NCBI GenBank assembly: GCA_964473025.1
Contig: CAYYMZ010000001.1
Coordinates: 24,163 to 88,162, forward strand
Length of the DNA stretch: 64,000 nt
From: an uncultured Candidatus Saccharibacteria bacterium
GTDB taxonomy: Bacteria > Patescibacteriota > UBA1384 > DTJR01
Reading direction: 5' to 3'
In this document: positions 6,391-54,819 of the stretch, one piece after another
Layout of the letters: each line of letters starts with the position of its first letter
Position numbering within the stretch: position 1 is the stretch's first letter
Translations under genes and position numbers: made by a program
The notes under the pieces: model-generated
Databases searched by the model: none
Seen by the model: the letters and a program-made list of their open reading frames with translations, nothing else
Told to the model about the DNA's origin: nothing

Positions 6391-8675
6391 AAATATTAAT
6401 TGTAGCTTTCTCGGAGAGTATTCATGTTACCCGTTGGATTAATCAGCTGGAAGGCAGCAAAATCAAAGTTTATCTTTTTCCGAGTGTTGACAACGGAGTG
6501 ACTAATAAAGAGCTAAAAGACGCAACCGTTTTTCATTCATTCTACGGGAATCTGTCTTATCGAAATAAAAATGTAAAAACCAAAGGCATTCCAGTTTTAA
6601 GCCACTTGATTGGAATTGTGCTGAGGATGATTTTAAAAAAAATCAGACCTAATTATCACCAGGAGCGCCTGCGCCGGGTTATTAAAAAGATCAGGCCGGA
6701 TATTATTCATTCGATGGAGATTCAACATTCGTCTTATCTGGTTAGCGAGATTAAAAATAACTGGAAAGGAAATTTTCCGAAATGGATTGTAACTAACTGG
6801 GGAAGCGACATCTATCTTTACGGACAGCTTCCAGAACATCGAGAGAAAATAAAAAAGGTGCTAAGCTCTTGCGATTACTATTCATGTGAATGTCAAAGAG
6901 ATATTTTGCTCGGCAAAAAACACGGATTTTCAAAAGCCACTCTGCCAGTTTTTCCAAATTCTGGCGGGTTTAATTTGAAGAGATTAAAAAAAATTCGCGA
7001 AAAAATACCGCCCTCAAAGAGAAGGACGATTATCGTAAAGGGTTATCAAGGTTGGGCTGGAAGGGCCCAAGTGGCTCTACATGCGCTTGATTGTTGCGGA
7101 AAGCTGATAGATGGTTACCGCCTTGTAGTTTATTCTATCCAGCCTGATACGGGCGTTGGAATTGCCGCAGAACTTTTAGCTCAAAAATATAACTTGAGAC
7201 TAGTCCTTGTACCACTCCATACATCCCATGAGCAGATCCTAAAATATATGTCTCAAGCGCGGATCTCGATTGGTGTAAGTATTTCCGATGCAATTTCGAC
7301 AATGGTTTTAGAAGCGATGGTTATGGGATCCTTCCCGATCCAATCCAACACCTCCTGCGCTAATGAGTGGATCAAATCTGGCAAAACAGGTATGATTGTT
7401 CCGCCGGAGGATCCGGAGGTAATCGAGCGAGCAATAAGAAATGCTCTCACAAATGACAAGCTTGTCGACCGCGCCGCGCTCTTGAATTGGAAGGTGGCCG
7501 AGAAACAACTGGATCACAAATTAATAAAAAAGAAAATTATAAGGTTTTATAATGAGGTAACAAATATGAAAACAAATAAAACGTTTGTAACAGGAATTTT
7601 TGGTAGTGGCAAAACAACCTTTGTCAAGAAGTATGCCAAGGAGAACAAGATTAAACTTATTTCCTTTGATTGGAGCTTTAATTATCGCATAAAAGGAAAT
7701 CAATCACGCCGAATTTTACAAAATCTGCCGGAGCGTTTTGTGATGGACGCAATTCCAATCGACGAACAGGGTAGTTGGGATGATTTTATTGAGTATGAGA
7801 AAAAACGCGACGACGTTTCGGTCGTCTGTATTTATTGTCCCTCGATGAGCGTTTGGTTGAGAAGGGTTGGCAAGAGGCGGTCTATTATAAGGGTTGGCAA
7901 GAGAGCGGTCTATTATAAGGATTTTATGGGCGCCTTAAAATACTCGGCTAAAAAAACTCTGAGAAAGAGAATTATTCCTATTAACATTGAAGAGTTAAAT
8001 AAAGATTACCGCAGTTTTTTCACCGGCACTTTGACATCATTAAAAAAGTTCAAATCTGTCCGATATTATGACTCCTGCGCCAATGAATATACTACCCTTG
8101 GGGAGATGCTAAAGAGAATCAAAATTGACACCTTCCCATTCCAGGACTATCTCCAGAGTCGGCCCGAAGGTTATGACAAATACTATCAGGATATCGAAAT
8201 AATCAATTTCAAGGGATATTCAGAATCCTACAAAACATGGAATATTATCAAGGATTTAGTTAACTGGAAGGGAAAGGATGTAGTTGATTTAGGTTGCTTT
8301 CAAGGTTATTTTTCGTTTAAAGCCGAAGATGCCGGGGCTAACGTTATCGGCCTGGAAAAAAGCGAAACGGTTTTGAAAACAGCTAGATGGATAAATAAAT
8401 TAAGGGGTGGAAAGGTAAAATTAAGACAATGGGAGGGCGGAGAACTTATTCCGAAATGCGACATCGTTTTGTGTCTTAACGTCCTTCATCATTTTCCCGA
8501 CCCTGATAAGGTTATTGAGATGATGAATTGTAAAAAAATGATCTTCGAGATTAACAAAAAAGATCGGCCGATAGTTGAAAGACACTTGAAAGTTATAAAA
8601 ACCGTCCGGTCCCAAAGGGTAAAAAGGACGATTCTATTATGCGAGGCCAAGAAAGATCTTAAGAAATCTGCCTAA
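6387..8675 (+). CDS. three-domain fusion protein: N-terminal GT4-like glycosyltransferase, central P-loop NTPase/kinase-like domain, C-terminal class I SAM methyltransferase
   Basis: GT-B motif SISDAISTMVLEAMVMG; Walker A GIFGSGKTT at ~aa 405; MTase motif VVDLGCFQGYF..VLCLNVLHHF at C-terminus; 762 aa. Confidence 0.65.
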   Translation: MKILIVAFSESIHVTRWINQLEGSKIKVYLFPSVDNGVTNKELKDATVFHSFYGNLSYRNKNVKTKGIPVLSHLIGIVLRMILKKIRPNYHQERLRRVIKKIRPDIIHSMEIQHSSYLVSEIKNNWKGNFPKWIVTNWGSDIYLYGQLPEHREKIKKVLSSCDYYSCECQRDILLGKKHGFSKATLPVFPNSGGFNLKRLKKIREKIPPSKRRTIIVKGYQGWAGRAQVALHALDCCGKLIDGYRLVVYSIQPDTGVGIAAELLAQKYNLRLVLVPLHTSHEQILKYMSQARISIGVSISDAISTMVLEAMVMGSFPIQSNTSCANEWIKSGKTGMIVPPEDPEVIERAIRNALTNDKLVDRAALLNWKVAEKQLDHKLIKKKIIRFYNEVTNMKTNKTFVTGIFGSGKTTFVKKYAKENKIKLISFDWSFNYRIKGNQSRRILQNLPERFVMDAIPIDEQGSWDDFIEYEKKRDDVSVVCIYCPSMSVWLRRVGKRRSIIRVGKRAVYYKDFMGALKYSAKKTLRKRIIPINIEELNKDYRSFFTGTLTSLKKFKSVRYYDSCANEYTTLGEMLKRIKIDTFPFQDYLQSRPEGYDKYYQDIEIINFKGYSESYKTWNIIKDLVNWKGKDVVDLGCFQGYFSFKAEDAGANVIGLEKSETVLKTARWINKLRGGKVKLRQWEGGELIPKCDIVLCLNVLHHFPDPDKVIEMMNCKKMIFEINKKDRPIVERHLKVIKTVRSQRVKRTILLCEAKKDLKKSA
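7862..7916 (+). repeat. imperfect tandem duplication (27 nt + 28 nt) inside the fusion-protein CDS
   Basis: gttggcaagaggcggtctattataagg / gttggcaagagagcggtctattataagg; extra nt in copy 2 makes the two copies read in different frames (VGKRRSIIR vs VGKRAVYYK) yet ORF stays open. Confidence 0.85.
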
Positions 8676-8736: not shown

Positions 8737-9687
8737 ATGAAAGTATTAGTTGTTGGTGGAGCGGGATATTTGGGCGGTGCAGTCACGGACCTTTTGGCCC
8801 AAACCGATCATAAATTCAGGGTCTACGATGCCCTTTTGTACGAAGATGCATATTTAAAAAAAGTTGACTTTGTTTATGGTGATATCCGCGACAGAAAAAA
8901 ACTTTTAACTAATCTAAGATGGGCCGACGTGGTCGTGTTTTTAGCGGCACTAGTCGGAGATGGCGCCTGTGCCATCAATCCCGATATCTCGACAGAGTTA
9001 AACCACCTTGCCGTTGCTTGGTTGGCTGAAAATTTTGATGGCAGAATTATTTTTATGTCAACCTGCTCGGTTTATGGGGCGCAAGATGAGATTTTAAACG
9101 AAAAATCACCGATTAATCCATTGTCAGTTTATGCTGTGACTAAATTTGCCGCTGAAGTTCACCTTAAGAACAAAGATGCCATTATTTTCCGCCTCGGAAC
9201 ACTTTTTGGTGTCTCGGATGAATTTTCTAGGATTCGACTTGACTTAGTTGTAAATACGATGACCGCAAAAGCATATTCTGAAGGAGAGCTTAAAGTTTTT
9301 GGCGGTACGCAATACAGGCCGCTACTGCACGTCAAAGATGCGGCTCAGGCGATTGTGGATAATCTTGAAACCAAGCACAAAGGAATCTATAACTTACATA
9401 AAATAAATATCAAAATTTCTGATTTGGCCGAGGAGGTCAAAAAGCAATTCCCCAAAGTAAAAATTGAAAAGGTAAAAATGAAATTCGAAGATTCCAGAAA
9501 TTACCGGGTTTCATCTGATTTGGCCAAAAAAACCTTCGGGTTTAATCCACAATACTCGCCTTCTGATGGGATCAAAGAGCTTAAGAAAATTCTAGAAGAG
9601 GGACGGATTAGAGATCTTAATAGTCCGCGGTATACCAATCAAATGTTTTTAACACAATTTAATACCCATAAGTTGTGCAAGGAGTAA
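8737..9687 (+). CDS. NAD-dependent epimerase/dehydratase (SDR family, sugar-nucleotide modifying)
   Basis: N-terminal VVGGAGYLGG Rossmann motif; YxxxK-type SDR; good SD gaggtg upstream. Confidence 0.75.
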   Translation: MKVLVVGGAGYLGGAVTDLLAQTDHKFRVYDALLYEDAYLKKVDFVYGDIRDRKKLLTNLRWADVVVFLAALVGDGACAINPDISTELNHLAVAWLAENFDGRIIFMSTCSVYGAQDEILNEKSPINPLSVYAVTKFAAEVHLKNKDAIIFRLGTLFGVSDEFSRIRLDLVVNTMTAKAYSEGELKVFGGTQYRPLLHVKDAAQAIVDNLETKHKGIYNLHKINIKISDLAEEVKKQFPKVKIEKVKMKFEDSRNYRVSSDLAKKTFGFNPQYSPSDGIKELKKILEEGRIRDLNSPRYTNQMFLTQFNTHKLCKE

Positions 9688-9688: not shown

Positions 9689-10153
9689 ATGCCAAAAGAA
9701 AAAGAATCAAATGAAGAAAAACCATATTTAATTGAGGGTGGAATTGCTATCGATGATCGAGGTCAGCTTGTATTTTCAAACGATTTTGATTTCAAGGGTA
9801 TCAAGAGATTTTATATGGTCGCAAACCATAAAGAAGGAATGGTGCGCGCTTGGCATGCCCACAAAAAAGAGGCGAAGTATGTTCTGGTCACAAATGGCGC
9901 GGCAGTTGCGGGAGCGGTCAAGGTAGACAATTGGGAAAATCCTTCTAAGTGGGTAGAAGTTAATCGCTTTGTCCTCTCGGCTAAAAAACCTTCTCTTTTG
10001 TATATTCCGGCGGGTTATGCTAATGGTTTTATGAACTTGACTGCTGATACTCAAATTATGTTTTTCTCGACCTTGACACTAGAGGAATCAAAGGGCGACG
10101 ACTTCCGTTTCGATGCCAGATATTGGGATATCTGGGAGGTTATTGAGCGTTAA
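9689..10153 (+). CDS. cupin-fold WxcM/FdtA-like sugar 3,4-ketoisomerase domain protein
   Basis: 154 aa; RAWHAHKKEAKYVLV..PAGYANGF resembles dTDP-4-keto-6-deoxyhexose isomerase/epimerase cupins. Confidence 0.5.
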   Translation: MPKEKESNEEKPYLIEGGIAIDDRGQLVFSNDFDFKGIKRFYMVANHKEGMVRAWHAHKKEAKYVLVTNGAAVAGAVKVDNWENPSKWVEVNRFVLSAKKPSLLYIPAGYANGFMNLTADTQIMFFSTLTLEESKGDDFRFDARYWDIWEVIER

Positions 10154-11987
10154 AAACGCCGTCAGAAGGACAGTCCGGATTGGCTGATCCGGTAAGCGCT
10201 TCATTAATATTTTTAAATTTAAAAATACTTCCGTCGAAAGAGTAACTGCATTTTGGTAAATAAGGGAGGTTGTAACCAAAATAGCTGTTTAAAACGAGCC
10301 GGAAAACATTGACCGAGCTCCCGCCCGAAGATAAATCATCACTAGTTGCTTTTGGTATATGGTAAGCGGCCAATATCCCGTATTTCATCTGGAGATTTTC
10401 ACTAGACAGCTGTTCCTTTTCAGCTAGGGTCATCTCCGCACTCGGTGCCTCGGCCCCAGCGGAGAGCATATTATCACGGGCAGGATAAGGGCCTTCATCT
10501 GATTGAATTATGATAATTGCCTGGCCGTCTGATTTCTGCAAGGCCGTGCTTACGATTTCTTTCATTTGGCTGTTGATAAATTCAACTTGACCGACATATT
10601 TTTCTTTAACTGGCTTGCCAATATTATTGATGCCCGTTGTTTTCGATAGTGAGCCATCAGCGTTAAAATAATACGGGTTGTGGGGCACTAGGATGTGGGA
10701 GAAAATAAATCTTGACCCCGGTGTTTGATCTGCAAGCTCTTTAAGTTTGCTTATGGAAGACAAAGATTGGTCTTTCTGGTTCATCCCTCCGTATGAAATA
10801 ATGGTAAAATTGCCGATTTTTATTCCGTGCACAATTGTTTTCCAGTAGATGCTGTTTGCCAATTCTTTCTTTTCAAATGTGTTAAGCGCGTAAATACGCC
10901 CAAAGATATTAAGGTGGGCGCCTGATTTATAGTCATTATCTGCCAGTGGCGCCTTGCTCGACACGTCGTAATATGAACCAAGATTATAATATTGATAACC
11001 GAGCTTTTTAAGCTCTTTGGCAACCGGAGAATAGAGGGCAGAATTAAAATAAGGCGCGTATGTCTGAAGTGAACTTTTGGCGAACAGTTGAGTCAAATCG
11101 CCGTGGTAGTTGGCCCGTAAAGTGGACGAGACAGAAGAAGCGGTGTTGGGATAATTAGCGTGCGCATTCGGATCGATTGAAAACCCGTTGTCTCTAAGAA
11201 AGTTAGCGAAATCCGAATTATCAAAGCCGAACCTATCTCTTAAAATATTTTCGTTTGTATATCGATCTAAGACAATATAGTAAATATCCGGTTTATCGTC
11301 GGGGTTCATATTGGCACCCTGTTCGAAAAGCGCCGCAGGCCGGTAGAAAAACTGCGGCCATTCTAAAACTGCGATGCGCAAAACAGAATAAAGCTGGATT
11401 GAAAATGTAACCAAGATTGCGATGACAGCTCCTCTGAAGAAAACATCTAGGTTTAATTTTCGTGACTTCATTAAACCGTCAACCTTGATAAACAGATAAT
11501 AAACAATCGCGACAAAGAGAACCACGAAGATAATTAAATTATAGCCTCCGAGAAAATCGATGATTTTAGATATAAAACCGACAGAACGAAATAAGTTCCA
11601 AACTGGTTGCAATATCATGTCGACTCTCCCTCTGATCGCGAAATAAAATCCAACTGCCAAGAGGAGAGCGACAAACCTGTTCTTTGTAAAAGGCCAAAAA
11701 GCCGTTAATGCCAGAAGCGCGCTGGAGACAGCGATTAAAATAAGAGGCAAAGCCAGGTCAAACAGGGAAATTTGCATTCTGTCTCTGATAAAGTCCGTCA
11801 ACGGCTGCAGGCTCAGCAGAAGAAAGATCGGGATCCACAACGCAAGAAAATTCTGCAGCCATTTCGGAGTAATATTCCCTAAAAAACGTGAAACTACTAA
11901 ATATGATTTTGCAAATCTTTTTGCCCACGATATTGCAACGGACTTATTTTCTCCAGTCTTTTTTACTCTTGATTTGACTTTTTTCAC
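10140..11987 (-). CDS. membrane-anchored sulfatase-like (alkaline phosphatase superfamily; LtaS/phosphoglycerol-transferase-like) enzyme
   Basis: N-terminal ~5 TM helices then extracytoplasmic domain; SHILVPHNPYYF resembles sulfatase/LtaS metal-site region. Confidence 0.55.
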   Translation of the reverse strand: MKKVKSRVKKTGENKSVAISWAKRFAKSYLVVSRFLGNITPKWLQNFLALWIPIFLLLSLQPLTDFIRDRMQISLFDLALPLILIAVSSALLALTAFWPFTKNRFVALLLAVGFYFAIRGRVDMILQPVWNLFRSVGFISKIIDFLGGYNLIIFVVLFVAIVYYLFIKVDGLMKSRKLNLDVFFRGAVIAILVTFSIQLYSVLRIAVLEWPQFFYRPAALFEQGANMNPDDKPDIYYIVLDRYTNENILRDRFGFDNSDFANFLRDNGFSIDPNAHANYPNTASSVSSTLRANYHGDLTQLFAKSSLQTYAPYFNSALYSPVAKELKKLGYQYYNLGSYYDVSSKAPLADNDYKSGAHLNIFGRIYALNTFEKKELANSIYWKTIVHGIKIGNFTIISYGGMNQKDQSLSSISKLKELADQTPGSRFIFSHILVPHNPYYFNADGSLSKTTGINNIGKPVKEKYVGQVEFINSQMKEIVSTALQKSDGQAIIIIQSDEGPYPARDNMLSAGAEAPSAEMTLAEKEQLSSENLQMKYGILAAYHIPKATSDDLSSGGSSVNVFRLVLNSYFGYNLPYLPKCSYSFDGSIFKFKNINEALTGSANPDCPSDGVFNAQ

Positions 11988-13372
11988 TTTAGACCCTTAA
12001 CCTTCATTAAGTGAATAATGCGGTGACTTCCCGGAATTTTTTCTTTTTTAAGAATTTTGAATTTTTCGGAAAAACTTGCTTCAAATCCCTCGATTGTGTA
12101 TCCGGGGAAAATATCCTCGCGCGAGGCCAAAAGCCGCTTAGTGTTTGAGTCCTGTTTTGGCACAAATTCGATAATTAAATATTTTGAAGTTTTGGCAAAT
12201 AGTTGTGCGATGTAAGACAGCGGAAGGTTATTGGCGATCGCCAAGTGGTGGATAAAAGCCAAGCACATCGAAAGGTCAAAATTGCATCTTTCAACAAAGG
12301 CGGTTCGCTCCTCGTTATTCCAACCAATCGAAGGGCTTGGATTAGTCAAATCGACGATCATTGGAAATAAACTCTTATCATTATTTTTCTTGATCGTCAA
12401 ATAAGATCTTTCGATCGCAAGTTCGTCGATATCAGAAGCTACGGTGAAAATCCCTTTCTCCGAAGCAAGACGGCTAAACGTCCCGTCATTTGCACCCGCA
12501 TCCCAGACCGATTTCGGCTTGATTTTATCTATCCAACCAGATACGATCTTCTTCTTTGCCTGGAATGCCCCTTTGGAATAATTTGTGTCGTTGTAATATT
12601 CGCCCCAGACTGTTTTCTGCTGTGGCAAATTCAATGCGGTGGCGGTTGACTGCAGGCTAGAAATAATCCCCAACAGTTGATTCTTGGTAATTCCTCGCCT
12701 CCGTTTTTTTATAACGCTTGGGTCGGTATATTTTTGCTGGCCTTTTGCGTGAAAGTGTAAATGGATTCCGAGCCCTAAGGATAATTTGGTTTTCCCAGGC
12801 AGAAGGCGCGATGCTAAATCGAGCGGAATGCCGTCAAGGTAGATTTCAAGTAATTTATTTAACCGTAAATCGGTTTTAGACATCAGTGCCAAGGGAGCCA
12901 GGAAGTGCTGACAAAATTGTTTATATGCTACCCAGGGCTCTCCCGTTTCGTAAATGCCGAAGGATAAAGTGTCGATTAAAACCGGTTTTCCGCGCAAAAA
13001 CTGAATATTATATGCGGATGCGTCCTTAAGGGTCATGCCGTAGGATAGAGCGATTTTCTGAATTTCTATTGTTAGAAGTGCGGCATCCTTTAACTGGCTA
13101 AAACTCCATTCGTACGGATAAGATAAAAAAGGGATTTGCTCCAGAAGCAAAATTTTATAAGTGTCTTGGAAGCTCTTGTTTCGGACTTCTTTGTGATTTA
13201 CAATCAGGCCTTTATCCAACAATTCGGCAAATAAACCAGTGCTCATGAGCATTTCATATTCTCTTGCGTATGATTTATTTACTTGTCTGTAAACTAAGGA
13301 CCCAGAACGGAAAACAAAACCGCTTGGGTCCCTGAAAGAGGAGGGGACCTTATTTGGATTTTTTGAGTTCAT
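11984..13372 (-). CDS. hypothetical protein with C-terminal class I SAM-dependent methyltransferase domain
   Basis: VWDAGANDGTFS glycine-loop motif and downstream acidic residue; N-terminal ~250 aa of unknown function; start chosen at internal Met (MNSKNP), ORF-track start 13444 also possible. Confidence 0.5.
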   Translation of the reverse strand: MNSKNPNKVPSSFRDPSGFVFRSGSLVYRQVNKSYAREYEMLMSTGLFAELLDKGLIVNHKEVRNKSFQDTYKILLLEQIPFLSYPYEWSFSQLKDAALLTIEIQKIALSYGMTLKDASAYNIQFLRGKPVLIDTLSFGIYETGEPWVAYKQFCQHFLAPLALMSKTDLRLNKLLEIYLDGIPLDLASRLLPGKTKLSLGLGIHLHFHAKGQQKYTDPSVIKKRRRGITKNQLLGIISSLQSTATALNLPQQKTVWGEYYNDTNYSKGAFQAKKKIVSGWIDKIKPKSVWDAGANDGTFSRLASEKGIFTVASDIDELAIERSYLTIKKNNDKSLFPMIVDLTNPSPSIGWNNEERTAFVERCNFDLSMCLAFIHHLAIANNLPLSYIAQLFAKTSKYLIIEFVPKQDSNTKRLLASREDIFPGYTIEGFEASFSEKFKILKKEKIPGSHRIIHLMKVKGLK

Positions 13373-13637
13373 TTCCTTTGCTCTTTTCCTGGTTTTCTTT
13401 CTTCTTACGCAAACCGGAGAAAAATCTGATGATCCGGCTTCCATAGACCTTTAAAACATACCCAGCGCCAAGCCCGGCGCCGATTAAAATCTGGATAATA
13501 TAACTTCCCGTACCAGGGTCAAGATAAGCGTGGGCGTTTTTAATTGGCACAAGACATAACAGCAACAAAAGCAGAAACGGCGATTTCACACGCAAGGTGT
13601 TTATTTTTAATTTTGAACGAAATTTAATATCCGACAT
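13350..13637 (-). CDS. small hypothetical membrane/secreted protein
   Basis: 95 aa, hydrophobic stretch LLLLLLCLVPI and GAGLGAGYV; SD-like gaggg 10 nt upstream; overlaps 5' end of upstream ORF, so uncertain. Confidence 0.3.
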   Translation of the reverse strand: MSDIKFRSKLKINTLRVKSPFLLLLLLCLVPIKNAHAYLDPGTGSYIIQILIGAGLGAGYVLKVYGSRIIRFFSGLRKKKENQEKSKGNELKKSK

Positions 13638-13719
13638 CTTTTTGCCCTCATTTATTAGATAGAATCCAAACTAGCTGTTTTTAAAGGTAACACAAATTTG
13701 AGTATTTTCAACACCGCGG

Positions 13720-14634
13720 GTGCGGTTAGTTTTACCCGTTGAACGTGACGGAAGTATCATACTTGACGTGACCAAAATCGAGCCGGGGGAGGGACATCGG
13801 CCTTTGGAGGCCAAGTATGCGGGCGCAGATCCCGCAGCTCTGCATCGGCTCACCAAACGAATCCGGGGGCCAATCTCGACCTACTGTTGGCCGGGTGAAG
13901 CAACCGCGCTTTTGGCACCGTTTGACAAGCTCCAAACCCTGCCCGAGCACCTGATCACAAAACTCAAGGCGAAGTACGGGGTGTGGGAGATTGGGGTGCT
14001 TCTAAACGAAGTGAGAAATACCGGCGCCCCCTACATCTGGAACGTCGCCGAGCCAAGCGGCGGTATGGCAGAAAGTGCCAACCTTGAGCTTGAGGCGATG
14101 CTCGAAATTGTCGAGATGGGGTTCTACAGGGAAGATGGCTGGGCGTCCTTTGATGTCTCGCGCCTTGCGAGTGCTGACCACTCGCAGGAAGTACTCGCCG
14201 AGCAGGAACGCTTGTGGCGTTCCATTAACCCCACCCTCGAGCGCAGGTGCGCGGTAGAGCTCTTGCCGATTGATCGTTTCGGCACAGATACCTTCAACGG
14301 GCGCCGTGGGATTATCTCGGTGCGCAAGGACGGCGGCCTCGGTTTTTTGAGAGCCGCTTACCTCCCTCTCAAAGAGGACGGATGGCGTCTGCGCGATCTG
14401 GAGGAGCATTTCGATCCGCAAAGCCAAACGAGCCAGATGCTCGACCGTAAGATCGTGGGGATTGTCGAGCGCATTGGCGGCAGATCGTCGCTGATGCTCG
14501 AGTTCGCCCCTAATGGCAGGCTTGATGAGTGCGGCCTGCACGTGGCCTTATCGGGCGAAGCGCTCAAGTACAACATCGGGCATCTAACCCGCTACGCGCT
14601 CGGTCCACGCGGTCTCGGCTGGATTAAGGACTAG
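13720..14634 (+). CDS. hypothetical protein (304 aa) in GC-rich islet
   Basis: 915-nt ORF in ~60% GC DNA (long ORFs unlikely by chance at this GC); GTG start, no clear SD; no recognisable motif. Confidence 0.5.
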   Translation: MRLVLPVERDGSIILDVTKIEPGEGHRPLEAKYAGADPAALHRLTKRIRGPISTYCWPGEATALLAPFDKLQTLPEHLITKLKAKYGVWEIGVLLNEVRNTGAPYIWNVAEPSGGMAESANLELEAMLEIVEMGFYREDGWASFDVSRLASADHSQEVLAEQERLWRSINPTLERRCAVELLPIDRFGTDTFNGRRGIISVRKDGGLGFLRAAYLPLKEDGWRLRDLEEHFDPQSQTSQMLDRKIVGIVERIGGRSSLMLEFAPNGRLDECGLHVALSGEALKYNIGHLTRYALGPRGLGWIKD

Positions 14635-14657
14635 CAGTACTACACAAGGAGGCAAAT

Positions 14658-15294
14658 ATGAATATCAGGTTTGTGCTGTTTGACATCGGTAACGTACTGG
14701 CGCTGGCGGATCGCCGGCGGACGGTGGAAGCGCTCATATTGCGCCACGGCGTCCCACGGGAGTTGGCCGAGGGTTACTTCGACCGCGCCGACTATGCCAC
14801 CCTAGGCCGGGGGGCAAATCAAGTGGGAAGAGTACTGTCAGCGTCTTCGTGAGCAGTGGCTTGTCGAGATCCCCGATGAAGATATTCACAGGGCACACGC
14901 TGGTCACATCTACGCTCTCGATGAGGAAGTAGCCGAATTGATTGCGAGAATTGAGGCCAAGCCTAATGCGCTAAAGGTGGCTGGTGTAACTAACACCAGT
15001 GGGGTCGAATTTGTGCGCTACTGTAATCTCAACGTAACCCTTGTTCTCGATCCGGTCTGGTGCTCATACCAACAAGGAGCGCTCAAAGGCGGTGAGGGGA
15101 TTTTCGGGCGGATTGTTGGCGCATGGATTCCGGATAACCTCGGCGTCGGGGTGGGGCCAGATCAGGTTCTACTCATCGACGATAGTCCCGAGAACTGTGT
15201 CGCGGCAGCCGCGGCAGGGCTGACAACGTTCCAGTACACTCCCTACCAACCCTGGCTTCTGGAGGCCTATCTCCGGGAGCAGGAAATTATATAG
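14658..15294 (+). pseudogene. HAD-superfamily hydrolase interrupted by a frameshift in a G6 homopolymer
   Basis: HAD motif I FVLFDIGNVL at N-terminus (ORF 14658-14852) and motif VLLIDDSPEN..AAAGL in ORF 14938-15294; deleting one G at 14809-14814 fuses the frames (..DYATLGRGQIKWEEYCQRL..). Confidence 0.7.
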
Positions 15295-15323
15295 TGAGTG
15301 TCAGCGTAAAGGAGATGATCACT

Positions 15324-15352
15324 GGGGGCCCCGACAGGCCCCCTTTCCTATC
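15324..15352 (+). terminator. rho-independent terminator
   Basis: GGGGGCC-ccgaca-GGCCCCC perfect 7-bp GC stem followed by TTTCCTATCTT; marks 3' edge of GC-rich islet. Confidence 0.7.
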
Positions 15353-15409
15353 TTGATATCTTTGCGTAAATCTTGTACCTTAGCCCTAGACAAATTAAAT
15401 AATTTTATT

Positions 15410-16324
15410 ATGAAACAGAAAATTGCAATCTTAGGGGTAGGGGGAATGTTAGGTTCGATGGTTTTGGATGTCATAGCTCAAGACACAGATTTTTCAATAA
15501 TCGCCACAGTCCGCGATTTGAAAGAAACGAAAAAATTGAAAAAATATAAAAACGTTGTTTTTCGTAAGCTTGACGTCGAGTATGCCGCCACAGACATGCT
15601 TCAGAAGGCGCTCAAAGGCGCCAAATGGGTCGTAAACTGCATCGGCATTATCAAGCCCTATATTCATGATGATAACGCGGTAGAAGTCGAAAGAGCGATC
15701 CGCGTTAACTCGCTCTTTCCCCATAATTTAGCTACGGCGGCCAAAAAGAATAAAGCCAAGGTCATCCAAATCGAAACCGACTGTGTTTATTCGGGCAAAA
15801 AAGGCAAATATACAGAAAGCGATCTACATGATGCACTGGACGTTTATGGCAAAACCAAATCAATCGGTGAAGTTTATTTTGATAATATGTACCACCTCCG
15901 CTGCTCGATTATTGGTCCAGAGTTAGCCGGACATCTTTCCCTGTTAGACTGGTTCTTGACCCAACCGGAAAATGCCAAACTGAATGGTTATCAAAATCAT
16001 CTCTGGAATGGTGTTACGACTTTGCAATTTGCCAAACTTTGCATCGGGATTATCAAGAAGGATATAAAGATTAATCATCTCCAACATATTATTCCGACGG
16101 GCAAGATTGCCAAAAGCGAAATGCTCAAGAGTTTCGCCAAAGAATTCAATCGTTCTGATATCGAGATTACGCCTGTTAATGCACCGAAAGTGGTTGACCG
16201 AACTCTCACAACCGAAAACATAAAAATAAATGAAAGAATCTGGAAAACAGCCGGTTACAAGAAAACCCCAACAGTCAAGGAAATGATAAAAGAGTTAGCG
16301 CAATATAAAATGGTGGTTGAATGA
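15410..16324 (+). CDS. NAD(P)-dependent sugar-nucleotide reductase/epimerase (RmlD substrate-binding-domain family)
   Basis: KIAILGVGGMLGS Rossmann motif; ~305 aa; start at internal Met (MKQKIAIL) preferred over track start 15353. Confidence 0.6.
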   Translation: MKQKIAILGVGGMLGSMVLDVIAQDTDFSIIATVRDLKETKKLKKYKNVVFRKLDVEYAATDMLQKALKGAKWVVNCIGIIKPYIHDDNAVEVERAIRVNSLFPHNLATAAKKNKAKVIQIETDCVYSGKKGKYTESDLHDALDVYGKTKSIGEVYFDNMYHLRCSIIGPELAGHLSLLDWFLTQPENAKLNGYQNHLWNGVTTLQFAKLCIGIIKKDIKINHLQHIIPTGKIAKSEMLKSFAKEFNRSDIEITPVNAPKVVDRTLTTENIKINERIWKTAGYKKTPTVKEMIKELAQYKMVVE

Positions 16325-17412
16325 AAGTCTTGACAATACTTGGAACCCGTCCCGAAATAATCCGACTTTGTTTAATTATTAAAAAATTAGATTCTCTTTG
16401 CGACCAGGTTTTGGTTCATACCGGACAGAACTACGACGTCAATTTAAATGAAATATTTTTGCGTCAGCTCGGCGTTCGCAAAATGGATTATCACTTTAAC
16501 GCAACTGGAACCCCCGCCGAGCAGATAGGCAAAATTTTAGTTGAGCTTGAAAAAATCATTAAGAAAGAAAAACCAGACCGGTTCCTGGTCTTAGGCGACA
16601 CTAACAGTTCGATTGGCGCTATTATGGCCAAACGGCTTCATATTCCCGTCTATCACATGGAGGCGGGCAATCGATGTTTCGATGACCGCGTTCCCGAGGA
16701 GGTTAATCGCCGGATCATTGACCATTCAAGTGATATTTTAATGCCTTATACCGAGCGTAGCCGCCAGAATCTTTTGCGCGAAGGCATTGCGGGGCAAAGA
16801 ATTTATGTAACAGGCAACCCGATTAAGGAAGTGCTTGATTATTTTGCTGAAGATATCGATGCAAGCCGAGCGATGGAAAAATTCAAAGTCGAAAAAGGTA
16901 AATTCTTTTTAGCAACGCTACATCGCGAGGAAAATGTCGATGTTGAAGAACGGCTTGCAAGATTTGTGCAGGCCTTCAACAAATTGACCGAAAAATACAA
17001 AATGCCACTTATCTGGAGTGTCCACCCGCGCACCAAAAAAAGAATTAAAGCAAATAAAAAACTTAAATTAAATAAGGCCGTTTGCGCAATCGAACCGTTG
17101 GGACTCTTTGACTTCGTGCATCTTGAGAAAAATGCCTTCTGTTTACTCTCCGATAGTGGCACCGTACAGGAAGAGGGAGCGATTTTTAACGTTCCAAACG
17201 TTACGCTTCGAGATGTGACGGAAAGGCCCGAAACCATCGAAGCAGGAAGTAATTTCTTAAGCGGTTGTGAGATAGAATCGATCCTGCTTGGTGTAAAAGT
17301 AGCGGTTCAGAAGGCGGACAGTTGGGACCCGCCCAAAGAGTATCTAGTTTCTGATGTTTCCTCTAAAATTGCCAAAATAGTTCTAAGCTATAAAAAAACA
17401 GAGCAATCTTAA
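16321..17412 (+). CDS. wecB: UDP-N-acetylglucosamine 2-epimerase (non-hydrolysing)
   Basis: MKVLTILGTRPEIIRL..HMEAGNRCFDDRVPEEVNRRIIDHSSD..LHREEN characteristic WecB/MnaA motifs. Confidence 0.85.
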   Translation: MKVLTILGTRPEIIRLCLIIKKLDSLCDQVLVHTGQNYDVNLNEIFLRQLGVRKMDYHFNATGTPAEQIGKILVELEKIIKKEKPDRFLVLGDTNSSIGAIMAKRLHIPVYHMEAGNRCFDDRVPEEVNRRIIDHSSDILMPYTERSRQNLLREGIAGQRIYVTGNPIKEVLDYFAEDIDASRAMEKFKVEKGKFFLATLHREENVDVEERLARFVQAFNKLTEKYKMPLIWSVHPRTKKRIKANKKLKLNKAVCAIEPLGLFDFVHLEKNAFCLLSDSGTVQEEGAIFNVPNVTLRDVTERPETIEAGSNFLSGCEIESILLGVKVAVQKADSWDPPKEYLVSDVSSKIAKIVLSYKKTEQS

Positions 17413-29357: not shown

Positions 29358-29449
<92 letters not shown>

Positions 29450-42794: not shown

Positions 42795-42916
42795 CCGAGC
42801 CAAATTTTACCTTAAGTTACCTATAATTTCAATCATTTTGATTGCATATTTGGCTCAAAATGATATATTTATCTGTTCGTCGCATCGTTGACAATCCGAC
42901 AGGGAGGGGATTCAGG

Positions 42917-43732
42917 ATGACAATTGGCGTTGGTATTCTGGCAGGAGGTCAGGGGAAGCGTCTCAAGCAGAATGTGCCGAAAGCGGAGGCACCACTCTAC
43001 GGCAGGCCGATGTGAGCTTACACGTGCGAAGCGGCACTGGAGATTACCAGGGAGCAGATCCAAATGGTCGTGCCGGCAGGAAGGCAGATTCACCACCATC
43101 AGGTAGAGTGCCTTGATACCCGCCATTCGTACATGGGCGATCTGTTTCAGCTTGTTGAACGGGCAAGGGAAAGAGAGTACGACCGTTTTCTGGTCATCAA
43201 TGCCGACTCCGTGCTGGTGACGGCCAAATCCCTACAGAGTTTCCTGGAATTGACCGAAGGGAGCGAAGCCGGCATTATCTGGCCGGCGATCCGACGCCAC
43301 TCCATCCCAGAGATGCTCCGGCAGACGGTCTTGAACGACCTGCCGGGGAGACCGGATCTCATCCGCAGCGGGGTTATGATGTTCAGGCCAGCGTCACTTC
43401 ACCCCAAAAAGAACATTCTTCGTAAACTAGCCCGCGATCCGAACAAGATAGTGCTCAGATCGCCTCTTGGCTTACCGTTCTGGGCCTTCAGGAGAGTTCA
43501 AGCGGAGTTTTACCGCCGCTATGCCGAGCTTCCTCTTCTTGGTCTGCGCAACTGCATCATGTGGGGCATGAAACTGCTCAACACAGAGGAGATCAAGAGC
43601 TGCATGAAAAGTTGTTTGGGTTGCGAGAGGGTAGAAATGCCGGAACTGGACATCGGGGTATTCGGCTTCGACGTCGATACGCCCAAAGAGCTGAAGCTGG
43701 CAGAGGACTATCTGCGCAGGTGGGGAAGATAA
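42917..43732 (+). pseudogene. MobA-like NTP-transferase (nucleotidyltransferase) gene with in-frame TGA at 43013-43015
   Basis: N-terminus GILAGGQGKRL..LYGRPM-[TGA]-AYTCEAAL continues in same frame as 222-aa ORF; strong SD GGGAGGGG; GC-rich; stop falls where MobA homologues have Trp. Confidence 0.55.
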
Positions 43733-43741
43733 GATTAATCA

Positions 43742-43783
43742 GGGTCGAAACAAAAAGGGGTGTTTCGACCCTTTTTGTTTTTA
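43742..43783 (+). terminator. rho-independent terminator
   Basis: GGGTCGAAACA-aaaagggg-TGTTTCGACCC 11-bp stem followed by TTTTTGTTTTT. Confidence 0.75.
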
Positions 43784-43854
43784 TCCCCCTTCGCAGAAGA
43801 CCTCGGATTATATCCGAGCACGAATAGGTCTTCTGCTTCGAAAGGATTGCATAA

Positions 43855-44647: not shown

Positions 44648-47233
44648 TTATGAACTGATTTCCGGCCATTTAGCCGAAATCAGATTTTCGCTATCTTTAA
44701 ATTCTTTTGGAATTTTCTGCCATATGGTTTCGGTCACATAGGGAACGAAGGGGTGGAGCATTTTGAGAGAATCAATCAGAATCAAAACAAGCTTCGCCCT
44801 GGCCGCAGTGCAATCTTCTGCCAGGTCGCTTTGCAGCCGGGGTTTAGCTTCTTCAATCATTATATCAGCAAACTCGTGCCAAATAAAGTCGTACAATAAT
44901 TCTCCAGCGCGCGAGAAGTGTAACTGGTCTAAATGCTTGGTTGTTTCTATAATTACTTCATTGAATCTGACCAAATCTTTTTCGTCTTGTTTTGACCATT
45001 TGGCATTTGAGCTTAGAGCTTCATTTGTTATTTGGGTTTTGTCATTTGGGTTTTCCAGGTTCATCAAAACGAACCTTGAGATATTCCAGATCTTGTTTGA
45101 AAAATTGCGATAGCCCTTGATTTTTGACTCTCCGACGGCAATATCGTTGCCGGCGGTTGTGCCGACGATTAGCGACATTCGAACGGCATCGGTGCCATAT
45201 TTTTGGGCAACATCGAGCGGGTCCAAAACGTTGCCGAGCGATTTGGACATTTTGCGGTTCTGTTCATCGCGGACCAGGCCATGCAAATAAACCGTTTCAA
45301 ACGGCGCCTTGCCGGTTAATTCCAGTCCCATCATAATCATCCGCGCAACCCAGAAAAACAGGATATCATAGCCCGTTTCCATGACGGTTGTTGGGTAAAA
45401 ATATTTATAATCTTCGGTTTCCTTGGGCCAGCCCAAAGTCGAGAACGGCCATAATCCGGACGAAAACCAAGTGTCTAACACGTCCTCCTCCTGCGTCCAG
45501 TTCTCGATGTCTTTTGGTGGCTCGGCACCGACGTAAATGTCATCCTTGGAAATTTTCAATTTTAAATTTGAAATTTTTAATGAATTTTCAATGTCAGAAT
45601 TTTGGAACTTGTCACGCACAGTGAAATCATAGGCATAGATATAAGCATCTGTATCGGGATTAACTTCTTTTTCCGGATTATGAAATTTGAAGGCCTCGAT
45701 CAGTTGCCCGACATTGTCATAAACTGCTCCGTGAGCTTTGTCCTGAAGGGGCAGATCTTTTACTTTTGTCTTTGTTGATTCGGTTATGATTCCAAAGCCA
45801 AAAATTTCACTGGTGGCGCTATTCTCAAAATAAACCTTATCTCCAACTTTAAGTTCGTGATTGCGGATGCGATACGTTTTAGTTTTACCAGCTAAAATTT
45901 GCGGAACTACTCTTTCCGCAATCCCCATCACCTTCAATTTTAAATTTGAAATTTTAAATTTTAAATTCGCATCCTGTTTACGGTAGTAAACAGGCATGCG
46001 ATGTCCCCACCAAAGTTGTCTCGAAATACACCAGTCACGGATATTATCCATCCAGTGAAAATAAACTTTTTCAAATCTTTTGGGCGTAATTTTGATTTTG
46101 CCTGATTTTACGGCCTTTTTAGCTTTTTCAGCGAGTGGTTTCATCTTCACAAACCACTGTTTCGAGGGGATCGGCTCAATTTGTCCGTTGCACCTGTAGC
46201 ATAAGGCGATGTTGTGTTCGTAGTTTTCCTCGATATGGTCGATCAAGCCCATCTTCTGCATATCGTCGACGATTGTCTCGCGCGCATCACGGGTTTTCAT
46301 GCCAGCGTATTTGCCTGTATTTGCCATCATGCGGCCGTTCTCGTCGATAACTTGCTTCATTGCAACGTTGTGCCGTTGGGCAATTTCAAAGTCAACTAAA
46401 GAATGTGCGGGTGTCACTTTGATAGCACCGGTGCCAAATTCCGGATCAACGGCATTGTCTTCAACAACGATAACTTCGAATTCTCCCAAAACGCCTGGAA
46501 TCATATATTTTTTGCCGACCATATCTTTGTAGCGCTTATCTCCCGGATGAACGGCAACGGCGGTATCACCGAGTTTGGTCTCAGGTCGGGAGGTTGCTAA
46601 GACAAACGGGCCGTATTTTATCCAATACAATTTCCCTATCTCTTTTTTGTATTCCACTTCATCGTCGGCGATGGCGGTGTGACAGCGCGGGCACCAGTTG
46701 ACAGTACGAAGTCCCCGATAGATTAATTTTTTTTCATAAAATCGGACGAATGCTTCATTGACGGCATCGGACATGCCTTCATCTAATGTAAATCTCTCGC
46801 GGCTCCAGTCGCAACTTGCCCCCATGGCGCGAAGCTGATGGGTAATCTCCCCGCCAAATTCGTTTTTCCATTCCCAAATGCGCTTGACGAATTCCTCACG
46901 GCCGAGATCTTTTTTAGTTTTGCCTTCTTTGCGGATCTGCTTTTCCACTACTGCTTGAGTGGCGATGCCAGCGTGATCGGTGCCGGGGAGCCAGAGAGTC
47001 GGTTCGCCCTTCATTCTGTGATAACGGGCCAAAATATCTTCCAAAGTAATAAACATGGCGTGGCCAATGTGCAATTTACCCGTTACGTTTGGCGGCGGCA
47101 TCATGATGGTGAAGGGCTTTGCCTTAGGATCTATTGTTGGTGTAAAGGCACCCGATTTTTTCCACAGAGAATAAATATCTTGCTCGGATTCCTTCGGGTT
47201 GTAGGTTTTGTCTAGATCCATGGTTAAATCCAA
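44648..47233 (-). CDS. valS: valine--tRNA ligase with an inserted ASCH-like domain
   Basis: HIGH motif PPPNVTGKLHIGHA, WCISRQLWWGHRMP, DVLDTWFSSGLWPFSTLGWP, KMSKS; 861 aa. Confidence 0.9.
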   Translation of the reverse strand: MDLTMDLDKTYNPKESEQDIYSLWKKSGAFTPTIDPKAKPFTIMMPPPNVTGKLHIGHAMFITLEDILARYHRMKGEPTLWLPGTDHAGIATQAVVEKQIRKEGKTKKDLGREEFVKRIWEWKNEFGGEITHQLRAMGASCDWSRERFTLDEGMSDAVNEAFVRFYEKKLIYRGLRTVNWCPRCHTAIADDEVEYKKEIGKLYWIKYGPFVLATSRPETKLGDTAVAVHPGDKRYKDMVGKKYMIPGVLGEFEVIVVEDNAVDPEFGTGAIKVTPAHSLVDFEIAQRHNVAMKQVIDENGRMMANTGKYAGMKTRDARETIVDDMQKMGLIDHIEENYEHNIALCYRCNGQIEPIPSKQWFVKMKPLAEKAKKAVKSGKIKITPKRFEKVYFHWMDNIRDWCISRQLWWGHRMPVYYRKQDANLKFKISNLKLKVMGIAERVVPQILAGKTKTYRIRNHELKVGDKVYFENSATSEIFGFGIITESTKTKVKDLPLQDKAHGAVYDNVGQLIEAFKFHNPEKEVNPDTDAYIYAYDFTVRDKFQNSDIENSLKISNLKLKISKDDIYVGAEPPKDIENWTQEEDVLDTWFSSGLWPFSTLGWPKETEDYKYFYPTTVMETGYDILFFWVARMIMMGLELTGKAPFETVYLHGLVRDEQNRKMSKSLGNVLDPLDVAQKYGTDAVRMSLIVGTTAGNDIAVGESKIKGYRNFSNKIWNISRFVLMNLENPNDKTQITNEALSSNAKWSKQDEKDLVRFNEVIIETTKHLDQLHFSRAGELLYDFIWHEFADIMIEEAKPRLQSDLAEDCTAARAKLVLILIDSLKMLHPFVPYVTETIWQKIPKEFKDSENLISAKWPEISS
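45556..45579. repeat. 24-nt direct repeat copy A flanking valS insertion (encodes KISNLKLK)
   Basis: caattttaaatttgaaatttttaa; second copy 378 nt (in frame) away at 45934. Confidence 0.8.
45934..45957. repeat. 24-nt direct repeat copy B flanking valS insertion
   Basis: caattttaaatttgaaattttaaa, 23/24 identical to copy A. Confidence 0.8.
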
Positions 47234-48581: not shown

Positions 48582-49427
48582 CTATGAGATGCGGTCGAGG
48601 AAGTGGGGATCGTGGTCAAGGTGGTGCCTGATGGCGGCCGCGTCTGACTTGGAATGTGACGACACCGGAAGTGTCGGCCGCGCGAGCAGGTAGAGGACCC
48701 AGTAGGTGGCCGCGACGACGATGAGCTCGGCGGCAAGCCTGCCAATCATCATGGTGTCAGAACCAACGACCATGACTGACAGGGCTCCAAAAATCGGTGC
48801 CGCGGCTACTACTACTAACCCAAGGCCATATCGCGAGATCTTGTATGGCCTGTGTGCGATTGCGGCGCCTGTCATACCCCAGAACAGACAGCCGAACAGA
48901 GCAAGTGCAGGCCAGAGCAGGTAAACCAACGCGAAGATCTCCCCATTCAGATTCGCAAGATGGGGGAAGATTCTTTGTGCAAGGTAGTGAACCGCGAAGG
49001 AGCTGACAAACAGCGTCACCCATCCCACCGCAGTCAGGACCTTGATCAGCTTGAAACTGACCCGCTCGAGGTCGCCCTCGACGATGCGGATTGGGTCTGC
49101 CGTAGTGTGTAGGACCCAGGCACCAATCGCCGCGGCGCAGAACAGCCACCCGCTGATGGCATCCCAATAGACGCCTATGCAAACAGCCGCTATTGCCAGT
49201 ACTGCCAGCGTACTGATGCAAATCCCGTTGCCCGCCAGTTCGTGCTTCCCTGACTTGATCTCGAGTCCATTGAGGATGTAGGTAACGACGCGAAGGGGGA
49301 TCAGGCCAACCAGAATTCCGGTGGCCATGGCCCAAAGCGGCGGATGAGGCAGGCGAAACGCGGCGATTGAGACGTAGGCGATGGCCGCGTAAATCATCGC
49401 GTAAATCAGAAAACGCCTGAAACGCAT
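48582..49427 (-). CDS. hypothetical polytopic membrane protein (GC-rich islet)
   Basis: 281 aa, ~8 hydrophobic helices; ~58% GC. Confidence 0.5.
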   Translation of the reverse strand: MRFRRFLIYAMIYAAIAYVSIAAFRLPHPPLWAMATGILVGLIPLRVVTYILNGLEIKSGKHELAGNGICISTLAVLAIAAVCIGVYWDAISGWLFCAAAIGAWVLHTTADPIRIVEGDLERVSFKLIKVLTAVGWVTLFVSSFAVHYLAQRIFPHLANLNGEIFALVYLLWPALALFGCLFWGMTGAAIAHRPYKISRYGLGLVVVAAAPIFGALSVMVVGSDTMMIGRLAAELIVVAATYWVLYLLARPTLPVSSHSKSDAAAIRHHLDHDPHFLDRIS

Positions 49428-49445
49428 TGGTATTCCTCCTTTCGG

Positions 49446-49901
49446 TTACGGTCCTTGCCGATCAAGGACTTCGACGTCTTCAGGGCTGTAGACATCTTGC
49501 TCGGGAGAAACCGCAGGTTCTTCGGTGGTGGGTTTTGCCGCTTCGTCCCAGACGAGGCAACCGAGGATGGTTGCGACGATGGAGATGGATGGAATCAATG
49601 TCCAAGCAAGCCATGTTCTTCCCCCAGCAAGGCCGGCGACAAGCGTCTCAACGCCCAAGACCGCCACAATTGTTGCCACGGCAGCGACCCGGGCAGCATA
49701 CTCGTCGAATGTGCTAGAAGGATTGCTGGTCATCCAGAACCAGAGCCAAACGCAACCAGCCCCAATCAGCACCCCGACGGCGATTTTGCCTTCGATGGCA
49801 CCCGCTGCTCCACCGGCAATCCAGCAGAGGAGTCCTACTAAGTATGCGGCTAGTAGGCTTAGTATTGCTCCCTTTACGAACGGTTGAATCTTGTACCACA
49901 T
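49446..49901 (-). CDS. hypothetical membrane protein (GC-rich islet)
   Basis: 151 aa, 4 TM, acidic C-terminus. Confidence 0.45.
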   Translation of the reverse strand: MWYKIQPFVKGAILSLLAAYLVGLLCWIAGGAAGAIEGKIAVGVLIGAGCVWLWFWMTSNPSSTFDEYAARVAAVATIVAVLGVETLVAGLAGGRTWLAWTLIPSISIVATILGCLVWDEAAKPTTEEPAVSPEQDVYSPEDVEVLDRQGP

Positions 49902-49904
49902 GTC

Positions 49905-50078
49905 TTATTCCTCCCTTCGTTTGTTGAGCCAATAGCTATATGCCTTCTCTGCGCCCATAGCGAGAGCAACGATAGCTGCCAAAAGCAGCATGCTGCCTAT
50001 GATTGGCAGCCGGAAAAAGAAACCAACGACTCCCAAAACCTTCTCTAGTTTGGAGCCATCTTGCTCGTGGGCTGCCAT
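49905..50078 (-). CDS. small membrane protein
   Basis: SD AAGGAGG 5 nt upstream of ATG at 50078; one TM helix. Confidence 0.45.
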   Translation of the reverse strand: MAAHEQDGSKLEKVLGVVGFFFRLPIIGSMLLLAAIVALAMGAEKAYSYWLNKRREE

Positions 50079-51087: not shown

Positions 51088-51143
51088 CTCGCACCTCCTG
51101 TGTGCTACCGAATGAATGTCTGACTACTGATCGGACACGATGC

Positions 51144-54750: not shown

Positions 54751-54798
54751 AAAAAAAGAGCGCCCGGCCCCAGTTCTTGTAAACTGGGGCTGGGCGCT
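54751..54798 (-). terminator. rho-independent terminator (minus strand)
   Basis: 17-bp stem AGCGCCCGGCCCCAGTT/AACTGGGGCTGGGCGCT (one G-U) with T7 on minus strand. Confidence 0.7.
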
Positions 54799-54819
54799 GG
54801 GTATGACCGGTTGTAGCGG

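Follow-up and report, generated by a model that had tools for sequence, protein, structure and literature searches.

The 64,000-nucleotide stretch of DNA analysed here (the window) belongs to contig CAYYMZ010000001.1 of assembly GCA_964473025.1, from an uncultured Candidatus Saccharibacteria bacterium, and contains a glycan locus that encodes a Wzt-type ABC ATPase, many glycosyltransferases and methyltransferases, a short-chain dehydrogenase/reductase (SDR), a cupin, an RmlD-like reductase and a WecB-type 2-epimerase. Within this locus a short GC-rich islet carries two genes on the plus strand, of which the first, here called X, encodes a divergent Nudix-fold protein and the second encodes a phosphatase of the haloacid dehalogenase (HAD) superfamily (Table 1). 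The X-HAD pair is probably a recurrent two-gene accessory of a nucleotide-sugar module in bacteria of the candidate phyla radiation (CPR), which has a GC-rich CPR origin, circulates among lineages and is in the first stages of being lost from this genome. Loci related to it are labelled L001-L025, with L001 being an independent contig of the same sequence and L002 the closest relative.

The islet is set apart from the rest of the glycan locus by its base composition. The GC fraction in 300-bp windows rises from 0.40-0.41 (13,350-13,799) to 0.52-0.59 (13,650-15,299) and returns to 0.40 (15,300-15,599), and the segment 13,700-15,350 as a whole has a GC fraction of 0.575 compared with about 40% in the flanks, which confirms the jump inside the glycan locus that had been reported by a sequence-only reading of the window. 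Sliding-window and tetranucleotide analyses both find the islet to be atypical. When the 64 kb are scanned in sliding 1,650-bp windows (mean GC 0.441, standard deviation 0.042), the value of the islet is reached by 0.24% of the windows, which sit at about 53,950, and in tetranucleotide content only one other stretch of the 64 kb deviates more than the islet. The GC fraction at third codon positions (GC3) is 0.68 and 0.63 in the two genes versus a host mean of 0.43 (standard deviation 0.03), and the encoded proteins are enriched in glycine, alanine, arginine and proline and depleted in lysine, asparagine, isoleucine and phenylalanine. Recoding these proteins with the codon usage of the host still results in about 0.49-0.50 GC, and therefore roughly half of the excess is attributable to amino-acid composition and half to codon choice. 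The preferred codons are generic G- or C-ending ones (AAG, GAG, GTG, CTC and GGG) and differ from those of the GroEL and ValRS genes, which rules out translational selection as the cause of the high GC; a structured RNA is likewise ruled out, as an Rfam search of the islet returned 0 families. An antisense open reading frame (ORF) at 14,002-14,541 is taken to be a by-product of the high GC. As the sequence-only reading had also described, the segment closes with a hairpin built from G:C pairs, which is reminiscent of an intrinsic terminator.

X is a remote Nudix-fold protein of an undescribed family that fails to conform to the canonical Nudix box. Its length depends on the start codon chosen, and the gene callers of NCBI and ENA place the start at TTG 13,803 to give a protein of 276 aa. 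X had been considered an orphan, but a protein search identifies 16 relatives among 5.8 billion proteins and an exhaustive profile search recovers 71 clusters at 50% identity, to which a further profile search with an alignment of 49 sequences added none among the candidates it covered; the named hosts of these relatives are Candidatus Uhrbacteria and Candidatus Nealsonbacteria, that is, CPR bacteria. Relatives of X were found neither in IMG/VR nor in phage and plasmid collections, which rules out a phage or plasmid origin. Among 63 full-length members the most conserved positions are G115 (60/63), E129 (58/63), E132 (60/63) and G134 (55/63), all of which fall on a predicted loop-helix-loop. 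Together they form the motif G115-x13-E129-(I)-x-E132-x-G134-(F), a shortened variant of the Nudix box, and in many relatives E129 is preceded by a lysine or an arginine, which results in the pattern (K/R)-E-U-x-E-x-G-U. Compared with the REUxEExGU portion of the Nudix box, the X motif is one residue shorter, has lost the second glutamate of the EE pair and has a displaced E6, while the α/β/α architecture of the Nudix fold is recognisable in X. The X genes of the window and L002 differ with a ratio of nonsynonymous to synonymous divergence (dN/dS) of 0.17 at a synonymous divergence (dS) of 0.61, from which it follows that X has been under purifying selection.

The partner of X is, judged by profile comparison, a YihX-like HAD phosphatase of subfamily IA. 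A profile of nine partner proteins matches YihX (8pno, 2b0c) over its full length with an E value of 4.9e-15, including motifs II-IV, and matches 4dcc with an E value of 3.9e-17, the best among HAD-IA structures. YihX is an alpha-D-glucose-1-phosphate phosphatase whose motif I, which we take to be FDLGNV, has the same DxG variant as the FDIGNV of the protein in the window. The residues D9/G11, T111/T113, K143 and D174/D175/S176 are invariant in the nine partners, among them the window protein once its frame is repaired. The likeness has its limits, as the partner scores 25.2 bits with the NCBIfam glucose-1-phosphatase equivalog NF006991, for which the cut-off is 295, and is accordingly not a YihX orthologue, its cap region varies widely from lineage to lineage, and the repaired window protein on its own has a weak match to the Pfam family Hydrolase (E 0.0022, below the cut-off).

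Unlike YihX, the HAD gene of the window is frameshifted and has no intact reading frame in this genome. The frame-0 ORF runs from 14,658 to 14,852 and terminates at a stop codon at 14,850-14,852. It passes through the only G6 run of the islet, and alignment with four homologues shows that the run is longer in the window by exactly one base. Upon removal of one G, a HAD protein of 211 aa is obtained that ends at 15,294 and aligns over its full length with the intact partners. The sequence-only reading had placed the lesion correctly in the G6 run but described it as a -1 frameshift, whereas it is a 1-nt insertion and a +1 shift restores the frame.

At least six other lineages have the X-HAD pair flanked on one or both sides by the same SDR/cupin and RmlD-like/WecB genes, and the former description of the pair as an insertion that splits a contiguous operon does not hold. 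In L005, L006, L017, L019 and L023, the SDR and cupin genes (separate or fused) are followed by a spacer of ~80-190 bp, X and a partner gene encoding ~210 aa, and then by a second spacer of ~75-195 bp, the RmlD-like gene, an optional methyltransferase gene, WecB and usually a glycosyltransferase gene. L002 has a CapE-like gene followed by X-HAD-RmlD-like, in L011 the pair precedes CapF-like, CapE-like and WecB/CapG-like genes, in L024 it follows SDR and cupin genes, and in L020 (Candidatus Uhrbacteria, MBI4143014.1) the gene order is HIT-X-HAD-SDR-cupin. The cassette sits directly 5' of the RmlD-like gene in L002, L005, L006, L017, L019 and L023, which is not the absence from relatives that marks an island. 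The SDR and cupin of the window are in turn 59-73% identical to those encoded directly 5' of X in other lineages. The intact 5' spacers of X in the relatives contain, as read by eye, a sigma-70-like TTGAC(A/C/T)-17-TATAnT promoter motif and a GGAGG sequence, a G+C-rich hairpin is present 3' of the HAD slot in every related locus but has a different sequence each time, and a second promoter-like motif for the RmlD-like gene is located past the hairpin. With a promoter-like motif in the relatives and a hairpin of its own, X-HAD behaves as a separate transcription unit that is nested in the sugar module.

The HAD slot is not always occupied by a HAD gene. In L019 it is filled by a weakly DUF218-like gene (8,943-9,551) that is unrelated to HAD and has a near-host GC of 0.41, and in L005 a similar DUF218-like gene (7,167-7,811) with a GC-rich composition of 0.62 lies just 5' of X, which shows that the membership of the cassette is variable. 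In two further loci X has no HAD partner. The X gene of L004 (1,180-2,103) has a CapF-like gene directly 3' of it, and that of L025 (1,459-2,406; GC 0.63 versus 0.39-0.54 in the flanking genes) is located outside glycan loci, between genes for a phosphoribosyltransferase and an NMN-transporter-like protein.

On comparison of these loci, the conserved gene order is interrupted in the window not by the GC-rich islet but by an AT-rich block on the minus strand, which lies between the cupin gene and X. The block encodes, according to Pfam, a sulfatase-like membrane protein of 615 aa, a 486-aa protein with a weakly methyltransferase-like C-terminus and a 95-aa membrane protein. Homologues of these three genes were found in none of the related loci, in six of which SDR and cupin are encoded directly 5' of X. 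The methyltransferase gene that had been regarded as the preceding member of the operon belongs to this block, and hence lies on the opposite strand in DNA that has no counterpart in the related loci. The alignment with L002 starts abruptly at 13,736, inside X. Upstream of this point X has lost its native promoter, Shine-Dalgarno site, ATG and ~14 codons (MPEKPLWMRAKVEG...), which are replaced by unrelated AT-rich DNA, and neither a Shine-Dalgarno sequence before the GTG of X nor a promoter-like site in 13,638-13,719 was found. Since the 5' end of X is replaced and the HAD gene is frameshifted, both genes of the cassette are damaged in this genome. The damage looks recent, as X has the low dN/dS given above, the HAD motifs past the frameshift are intact and the middle of the HAD gene is not over-diverged. 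The loss of the promoter, ribosome-binding site and ~14 codons of X through insertion of the block, taken together with the HAD frameshift, suggests an early loss of the unit. The earlier description of the islet as a foreign insertion in decay is thus only partly sustained: its composition looks foreign, a GC-rich CPR contig carries the pair at near-native composition and both genes are damaged, but the pair recurs in relatives and X bears the mark of purifying selection.

Table 1. Features of the X-HAD cassette and its surroundings (coordinates of the window)
Feature	Position	Strand	Remarks
SDR epimerase/dehydratase gene	8737-9687	+	Pfam; usual upstream neighbour of X
RmlC/FdtA-like cupin gene	9689-10153	+	Pfam; usual upstream neighbour of X
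Lineage-specific block between cupin gene and X	10140-13637	-	3.5 kb, AT-rich, three genes
Left junction, AT-rich replacement of X 5' end	13638-13735	.	no alignment with L002 upstream of 13,736
Gene X, divergent Nudix-fold protein	13720-14634	+	304 aa from GTG 13,720; 5' end not native
GC-rich cassette segment	13736-15350	+	~57-58% GC; common to the window genome and L002
HAD phosphatase gene, first 52 codons	14658-14813	+	frame 0; motif I (FDIGNV)
G6 run with 1-nt insertion (frameshift)	14809-14814	+	four homologues one base shorter here
HAD phosphatase gene, other 159 codons	14815-15294	+	+1 frame; motifs II (TNT), III (K) and IV (DDS) intact
Intrinsic-terminator-like hairpin closing the cassette	15324-15343	+	GGGGGCC-CCGACA-GGCCCCC, 7 G:C pairs, weak T-rich tail
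RmlD-like reductase gene	15413-16324	+	usual downstream neighbour; host-like GC
WecB-type 2-epimerase gene	16321-17412	+	usual downstream neighbour; host-like GC

The unusual composition of the pair is not confined to the window. DNA is available for 13 lineages including that of the window, and in 11 of these X exceeds its flanks in GC by 0.11-0.25. The values for X and flank are 0.586 and 0.403 in the window, 0.620 and 0.389 in L011, 0.619 and 0.367 in L004, 0.544 and 0.358 in L006, and 0.491 and 0.372 in L017, with the HAD partner showing a similar excess. The two exceptions are the Uhrbacterial locus L020, whose contig has a GC of 0.62 throughout (X 0.67), and L022, where a distant X with a GC of 0.40 resides in AT-rich DNA, which demonstrates that the protein does not require GC-rich DNA. 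Eight loci with ~100 kb of related flanks contain no strong GC outlier other than the cassette and, in L005, one gene next to it. The pair resembles horizontally acquired islands undergoing amelioration in that its GC, GC3, amino-acid and tetranucleotide content are atypical and a GC-rich relative carries it natively.

A history of exchange is apparent from the comparison of the window with L002. Identity per 60 nt is 80-93% in X, in both ends of the HAD gene and in the terminator, the region of which is ~85-90% identical, and decreases to ~65-75% in the RmlD-like gene, which has a dS of 1.8. The HAD gene itself is a mosaic, with a dS of 0.5 for codons 1-60, saturation for codons 61-175 and a dS of 0.22 from codon 176 to the end. 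The cassette is therefore less diverged than its RmlD-like flank, and this, together with the mosaic HAD gene, indicates that it was exchanged by recombination, apparently after the flanks had split. The saturated part corresponds to the HAD cap region (14,832-15,188 in the window and 11,140-11,500 in L002), on either side of which the ends are 86-93% identical; the cap region is the usual determinant of substrate specificity in HAD enzymes. Compared with all other lineages it is the L002 version of the HAD middle that is the outlier and the window version is as diverged as expected, which rules out pseudogene decay as the reason for the divergence. In deeper comparisons across lineages, the distances of X and of the flanks rank similarly. 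Around 13,700-15,350 and the minus-strand block only short repeats of the kind expected by chance were found, direct or inverted; with no meaningful repeats and no tRNA nearby, an integron, insertion sequence or att-type cassette was rejected. Patescibacteria are reported to exchange genes frequently, mostly with other Patescibacteria (PMC12455944).

The neighbours of X-HAD (an SDR, a cupin or SDR-cupin fusion, an RmlD-like reductase and a WecB-type 2-epimerase) are like the enzymes of the CapE/CapF/CapG, FnlA/B/C and WbvB/R/D pathways, which produce UDP-2-acetamido-2,6-dideoxy-L-hexoses, and CapE-like Polysacc_synt_2 and CapF-like Polysacc_synt_C genes are present at L002, L011, L019 and L024. 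To our knowledge, the described CapE/F/G-type pathways include neither a Nudix-like protein nor a HAD phosphatase. A Nudix hydrolase is present in the colanic acid cluster of E. coli, the GDP-mannose mannosyl hydrolase WcaH/Gmm (NudD), and it has been proposed to regulate the sugar pool in colanic acid synthesis. X differs from the WcaH/Gmm hydrolases in that it has no detectable sequence similarity to them, its motif is one residue short and lacks the second glutamate, it is ~304 aa long with additional N- and C-terminal parts, and a HAD phosphatase gene accompanies it in almost every case.

The occurrence of a Nudix-like X and a YihX-like HAD enzyme beside SDR, cupin, RmlD-like and WecB or CapE/F/G-like genes, and beside a HIT gene in L020, suggests a role in the turnover of a nucleotide-activated 6-deoxy-hexosamine. 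X-HAD is probably a self-contained transcription unit that serves a 6-deoxy-hexosamine-type nucleotide-sugar module (SDR and cupin upstream, RmlD-like and WecB downstream, or the CapE/F/G-like equivalent). Most likely, X would bind or cleave the diphosphate of the nucleotide-activated 6-deoxy-hexosamine and the HAD enzyme would then remove the phosphate from the released sugar-1-phosphate. This could turn over or proof-read a sugar of the pathway, clear a dead-end intermediate, regulate the pool or release the free sugar. The pair is probably derived from a GC-rich, Uhrbacteria-like gene pool within the CPR and probably circulates among lineages in which it has been partly adjusted to AT-rich hosts, to a stage that differs from one to the next. 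In the genome of the window, the 3.5-kb block is proposed to have inserted 5' of X, removing the promoter, the ribosome-binding site and the first ~14 codons, while a G5 run in the HAD gene would have gained one G.

Several observations weigh against this interpretation. X does not contain the canonical Nudix box GX5EX7REUXEEXGU and matches no family in Pfam or NCBIfam, including NUDIX (PF00293), at E <= 0.1; its profile has 0 matches among PDB sequences at E <= 1, the comparison with MutT by hhalign gives a probability of 0.2% and hence no relationship, and a Foldseek search of the PDB yields no significant match (best E 0.066). As there is neither a significant fold match nor a sequence link to Nudix proteins and the box is incomplete, the biochemical role of X-HAD is one that we infer. 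With respect to the proposed transfer, GC3 in X-HAD is 0.42-0.85 and reaches at least 0.55 in 9 of the 11 X genes from AT-rich hosts, the spacers next to the cassette have the AT-rich composition of the host (0.29-0.50 GC, with one downstream spacer at 0.57), and the pair has apparently kept its neighbours while the flanking genes diverged to 54-70% amino-acid identity. Long co-residence combined with high GC3 and AT-rich spacers is not easily reconciled with simple neutral adjustment after transfer. A count of polarised substitutions, meant to reveal ongoing GC loss, gives 56:23 for changes from G or C to A or T versus the reverse with GC-rich outgroups and 36:26 with other outgroups, and an AT-rich control gene has the opposite skew (44:87); the count is biased by outgroup composition and was discarded. 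Unlike acquired islands, the islet has no integrase or transposase genes, tRNA or flanking repeats that could be found (the nearest tRNA is at 29,360), and the pair occupies the same site beside the same genes and is GC-rich in nearly all lineages. Lastly, the frameshift in this genome is known from assemblies and not from reads.

Some of these points are shared by the alternative that an active process keeps the GC of X-HAD high in AT-rich hosts, which could be selection acting on its mRNA or coding sequence, or GC-biased repair tied to frequent recombination of the cassette. The high GC would then not be a remnant of recent transfer. The excess is found in all 11 AT-rich-host lineages examined, host-like spacers adjoin coding sequences with a GC3 of mostly 0.55-0.85, the synteny with diverged flanks implies long co-residence, and recombination is evident inside the cassette. 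Maintenance is nevertheless doubtful, because the distant member L022 is encoded at 0.40 GC, the GC3 of X in AT-rich hosts ranges from 0.42 to 0.75 as expected from differing residence times, a GC-rich CPR host (L020) carries the pair natively, the cassette common to the window and L002 appears younger than its flank, and the generic G- or C-ending codons do not constitute a recognisable selected set. A broader proposition, in which X-HAD is a new two-enzyme nucleotide-sugar step (Nudix-like cleavage of an NDP-6-deoxy-hexosamine, then removal of the sugar-1-phosphate) and its coding GC is also actively held 10-25 points above the host across lineages, by selection or by a GC bias linked to recombination, is distinctly unlikely; if it were true, X-HAD would be a rare example of coding DNA that inherits its base composition independently of the host. 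The view with which the sequence-only reading had ended, in which foreign DNA entered a contiguous sugar operon of this genome once and is now decaying, appears very unlikely even though composition, frameshift and the truncated 5' end of X all accord with it, as it does not account for the same pair in the same place with an intact HAD gene in many relatives, or for the dN/dS of X, and the upstream methyltransferase on the other strand is part of the minus-strand block, which is what was inserted specifically in this lineage.

A recurrent pair that is damaged in this genome must also be distinguished from an artefact of assembly. The abrupt left boundary, coincident with the GC jump, and the position of the lesion in a homopolymer are what would be expected if a chimera at about 13,736 and/or 15,350 were combined with a homopolymer error that created the frameshift. 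However, L001, a 1,944-bp MEGAHIT contig from ENA, is 100% identical to 13,583-15,526 of the window and covers both junctions and the G6 run, and assemblies from four sources, namely NCBI (a 101-kb contig), ENA, Logan and JGI, contain both the junction genes and the C-terminal HAD fragment (118 or 105 aa), which is called there as a gene of its own; the WecB of one of these contigs differs by one residue. L002 and other related loci have the same gene order across the right junction. A chimeric assembly or random error is thus unlikely, including the chimera at the junctions that the sequence-only reading had itself considered, and the combined artefact is highly improbable. Conversely, the frameshift could be real but functional, with the HAD protein made by a programmed +1 frameshift or by transcriptional slippage at the G run. 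We regard this as extremely improbable, in spite of every catalytic motif being kept in the downstream frame, as the extra base is present in none of the homologues, a run of six G is short for slippage, and we know of no +1 shift site of the prfB or antizyme type at this position. An accessory gene pair that moves between CPR lineages and is being lost here remains the preferred explanation.

GC-rich patches are a recurrent feature of this genome, as the window contains four more of them at 42,900-43,800, 48,600-50,000, 50,900-51,600 and 54,000-55,500, with a GC of 0.51-0.60 versus a background of 0.37-0.47. They are located among housekeeping genes (valS, trpS and groES/EL) and encode small proteins, several of which are hydrophobic and which have no or only sub-threshold matches in Pfam; their ORFs lie at 43,064-43,732, 48,582-49,427, 49,446-49,901, 51,144-51,683 and 55,138-55,626. 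The most tetranucleotide-deviant part of the window is a stretch of ~1.2 kb directly 3' of groEL (53,950-55,130; GC 0.55-0.60), in which neither strand carries a long, clean ORF and for which Rfam gives no match. The valS gene (44,648-47,233, minus strand) contains an in-frame insertion of ~126 aa at 45,555-45,959, which is flanked by a 27-nt direct repeat (45,555-45,581 and 45,933-45,959, 96% identical) that reads '..KISNLKLK..' at both ends. At 56,025-57,321, an ORF of 314 aa, which judged from its sequence resembles tyrosine recombinases of the XerC/D type, is overlapped at its end by a gene of the 23S rRNA intervening-sequence protein family (PF05635). In the glycan locus, the start of the RmlD-like gene is, on the basis of homology, most likely the ATG at 15,413 rather than the TTG at 15,353. 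The best named relatives of GroEL are from Candidatus Berkelbacteria (81% identity), followed by Patescibacteria, and by these neighbours the host of the window looks Berkelbacteria-like.

Overall, what appeared to be decaying foreign DNA becomes a defined recurrent gene pair, of which the X protein has no sequence match in Pfam, NCBIfam or the PDB. For annotation, this means that the element interrupting the glycan locus is the neighbouring AT-rich block and not the GC-rich patch. The most unusual aspect of X-HAD is the persistence of a high GC across many AT-rich hosts, and as about a dozen AT-rich backgrounds contain it in GC-rich form the pair provides a clean natural test case for how long a foreign composition can persist. 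The pair is linked to one particular class of pathways for cell-surface sugars in CPR bacteria, organisms whose surface glycans are considered central to an attached way of life and are biochemically unexplored. From the sequences a hypothesis emerges that can be tested at the bench, according to which a UDP-6-deoxy-HexNAc-type sugar would be subject to Nudix-like cleavage followed by the action of the phosphatase.

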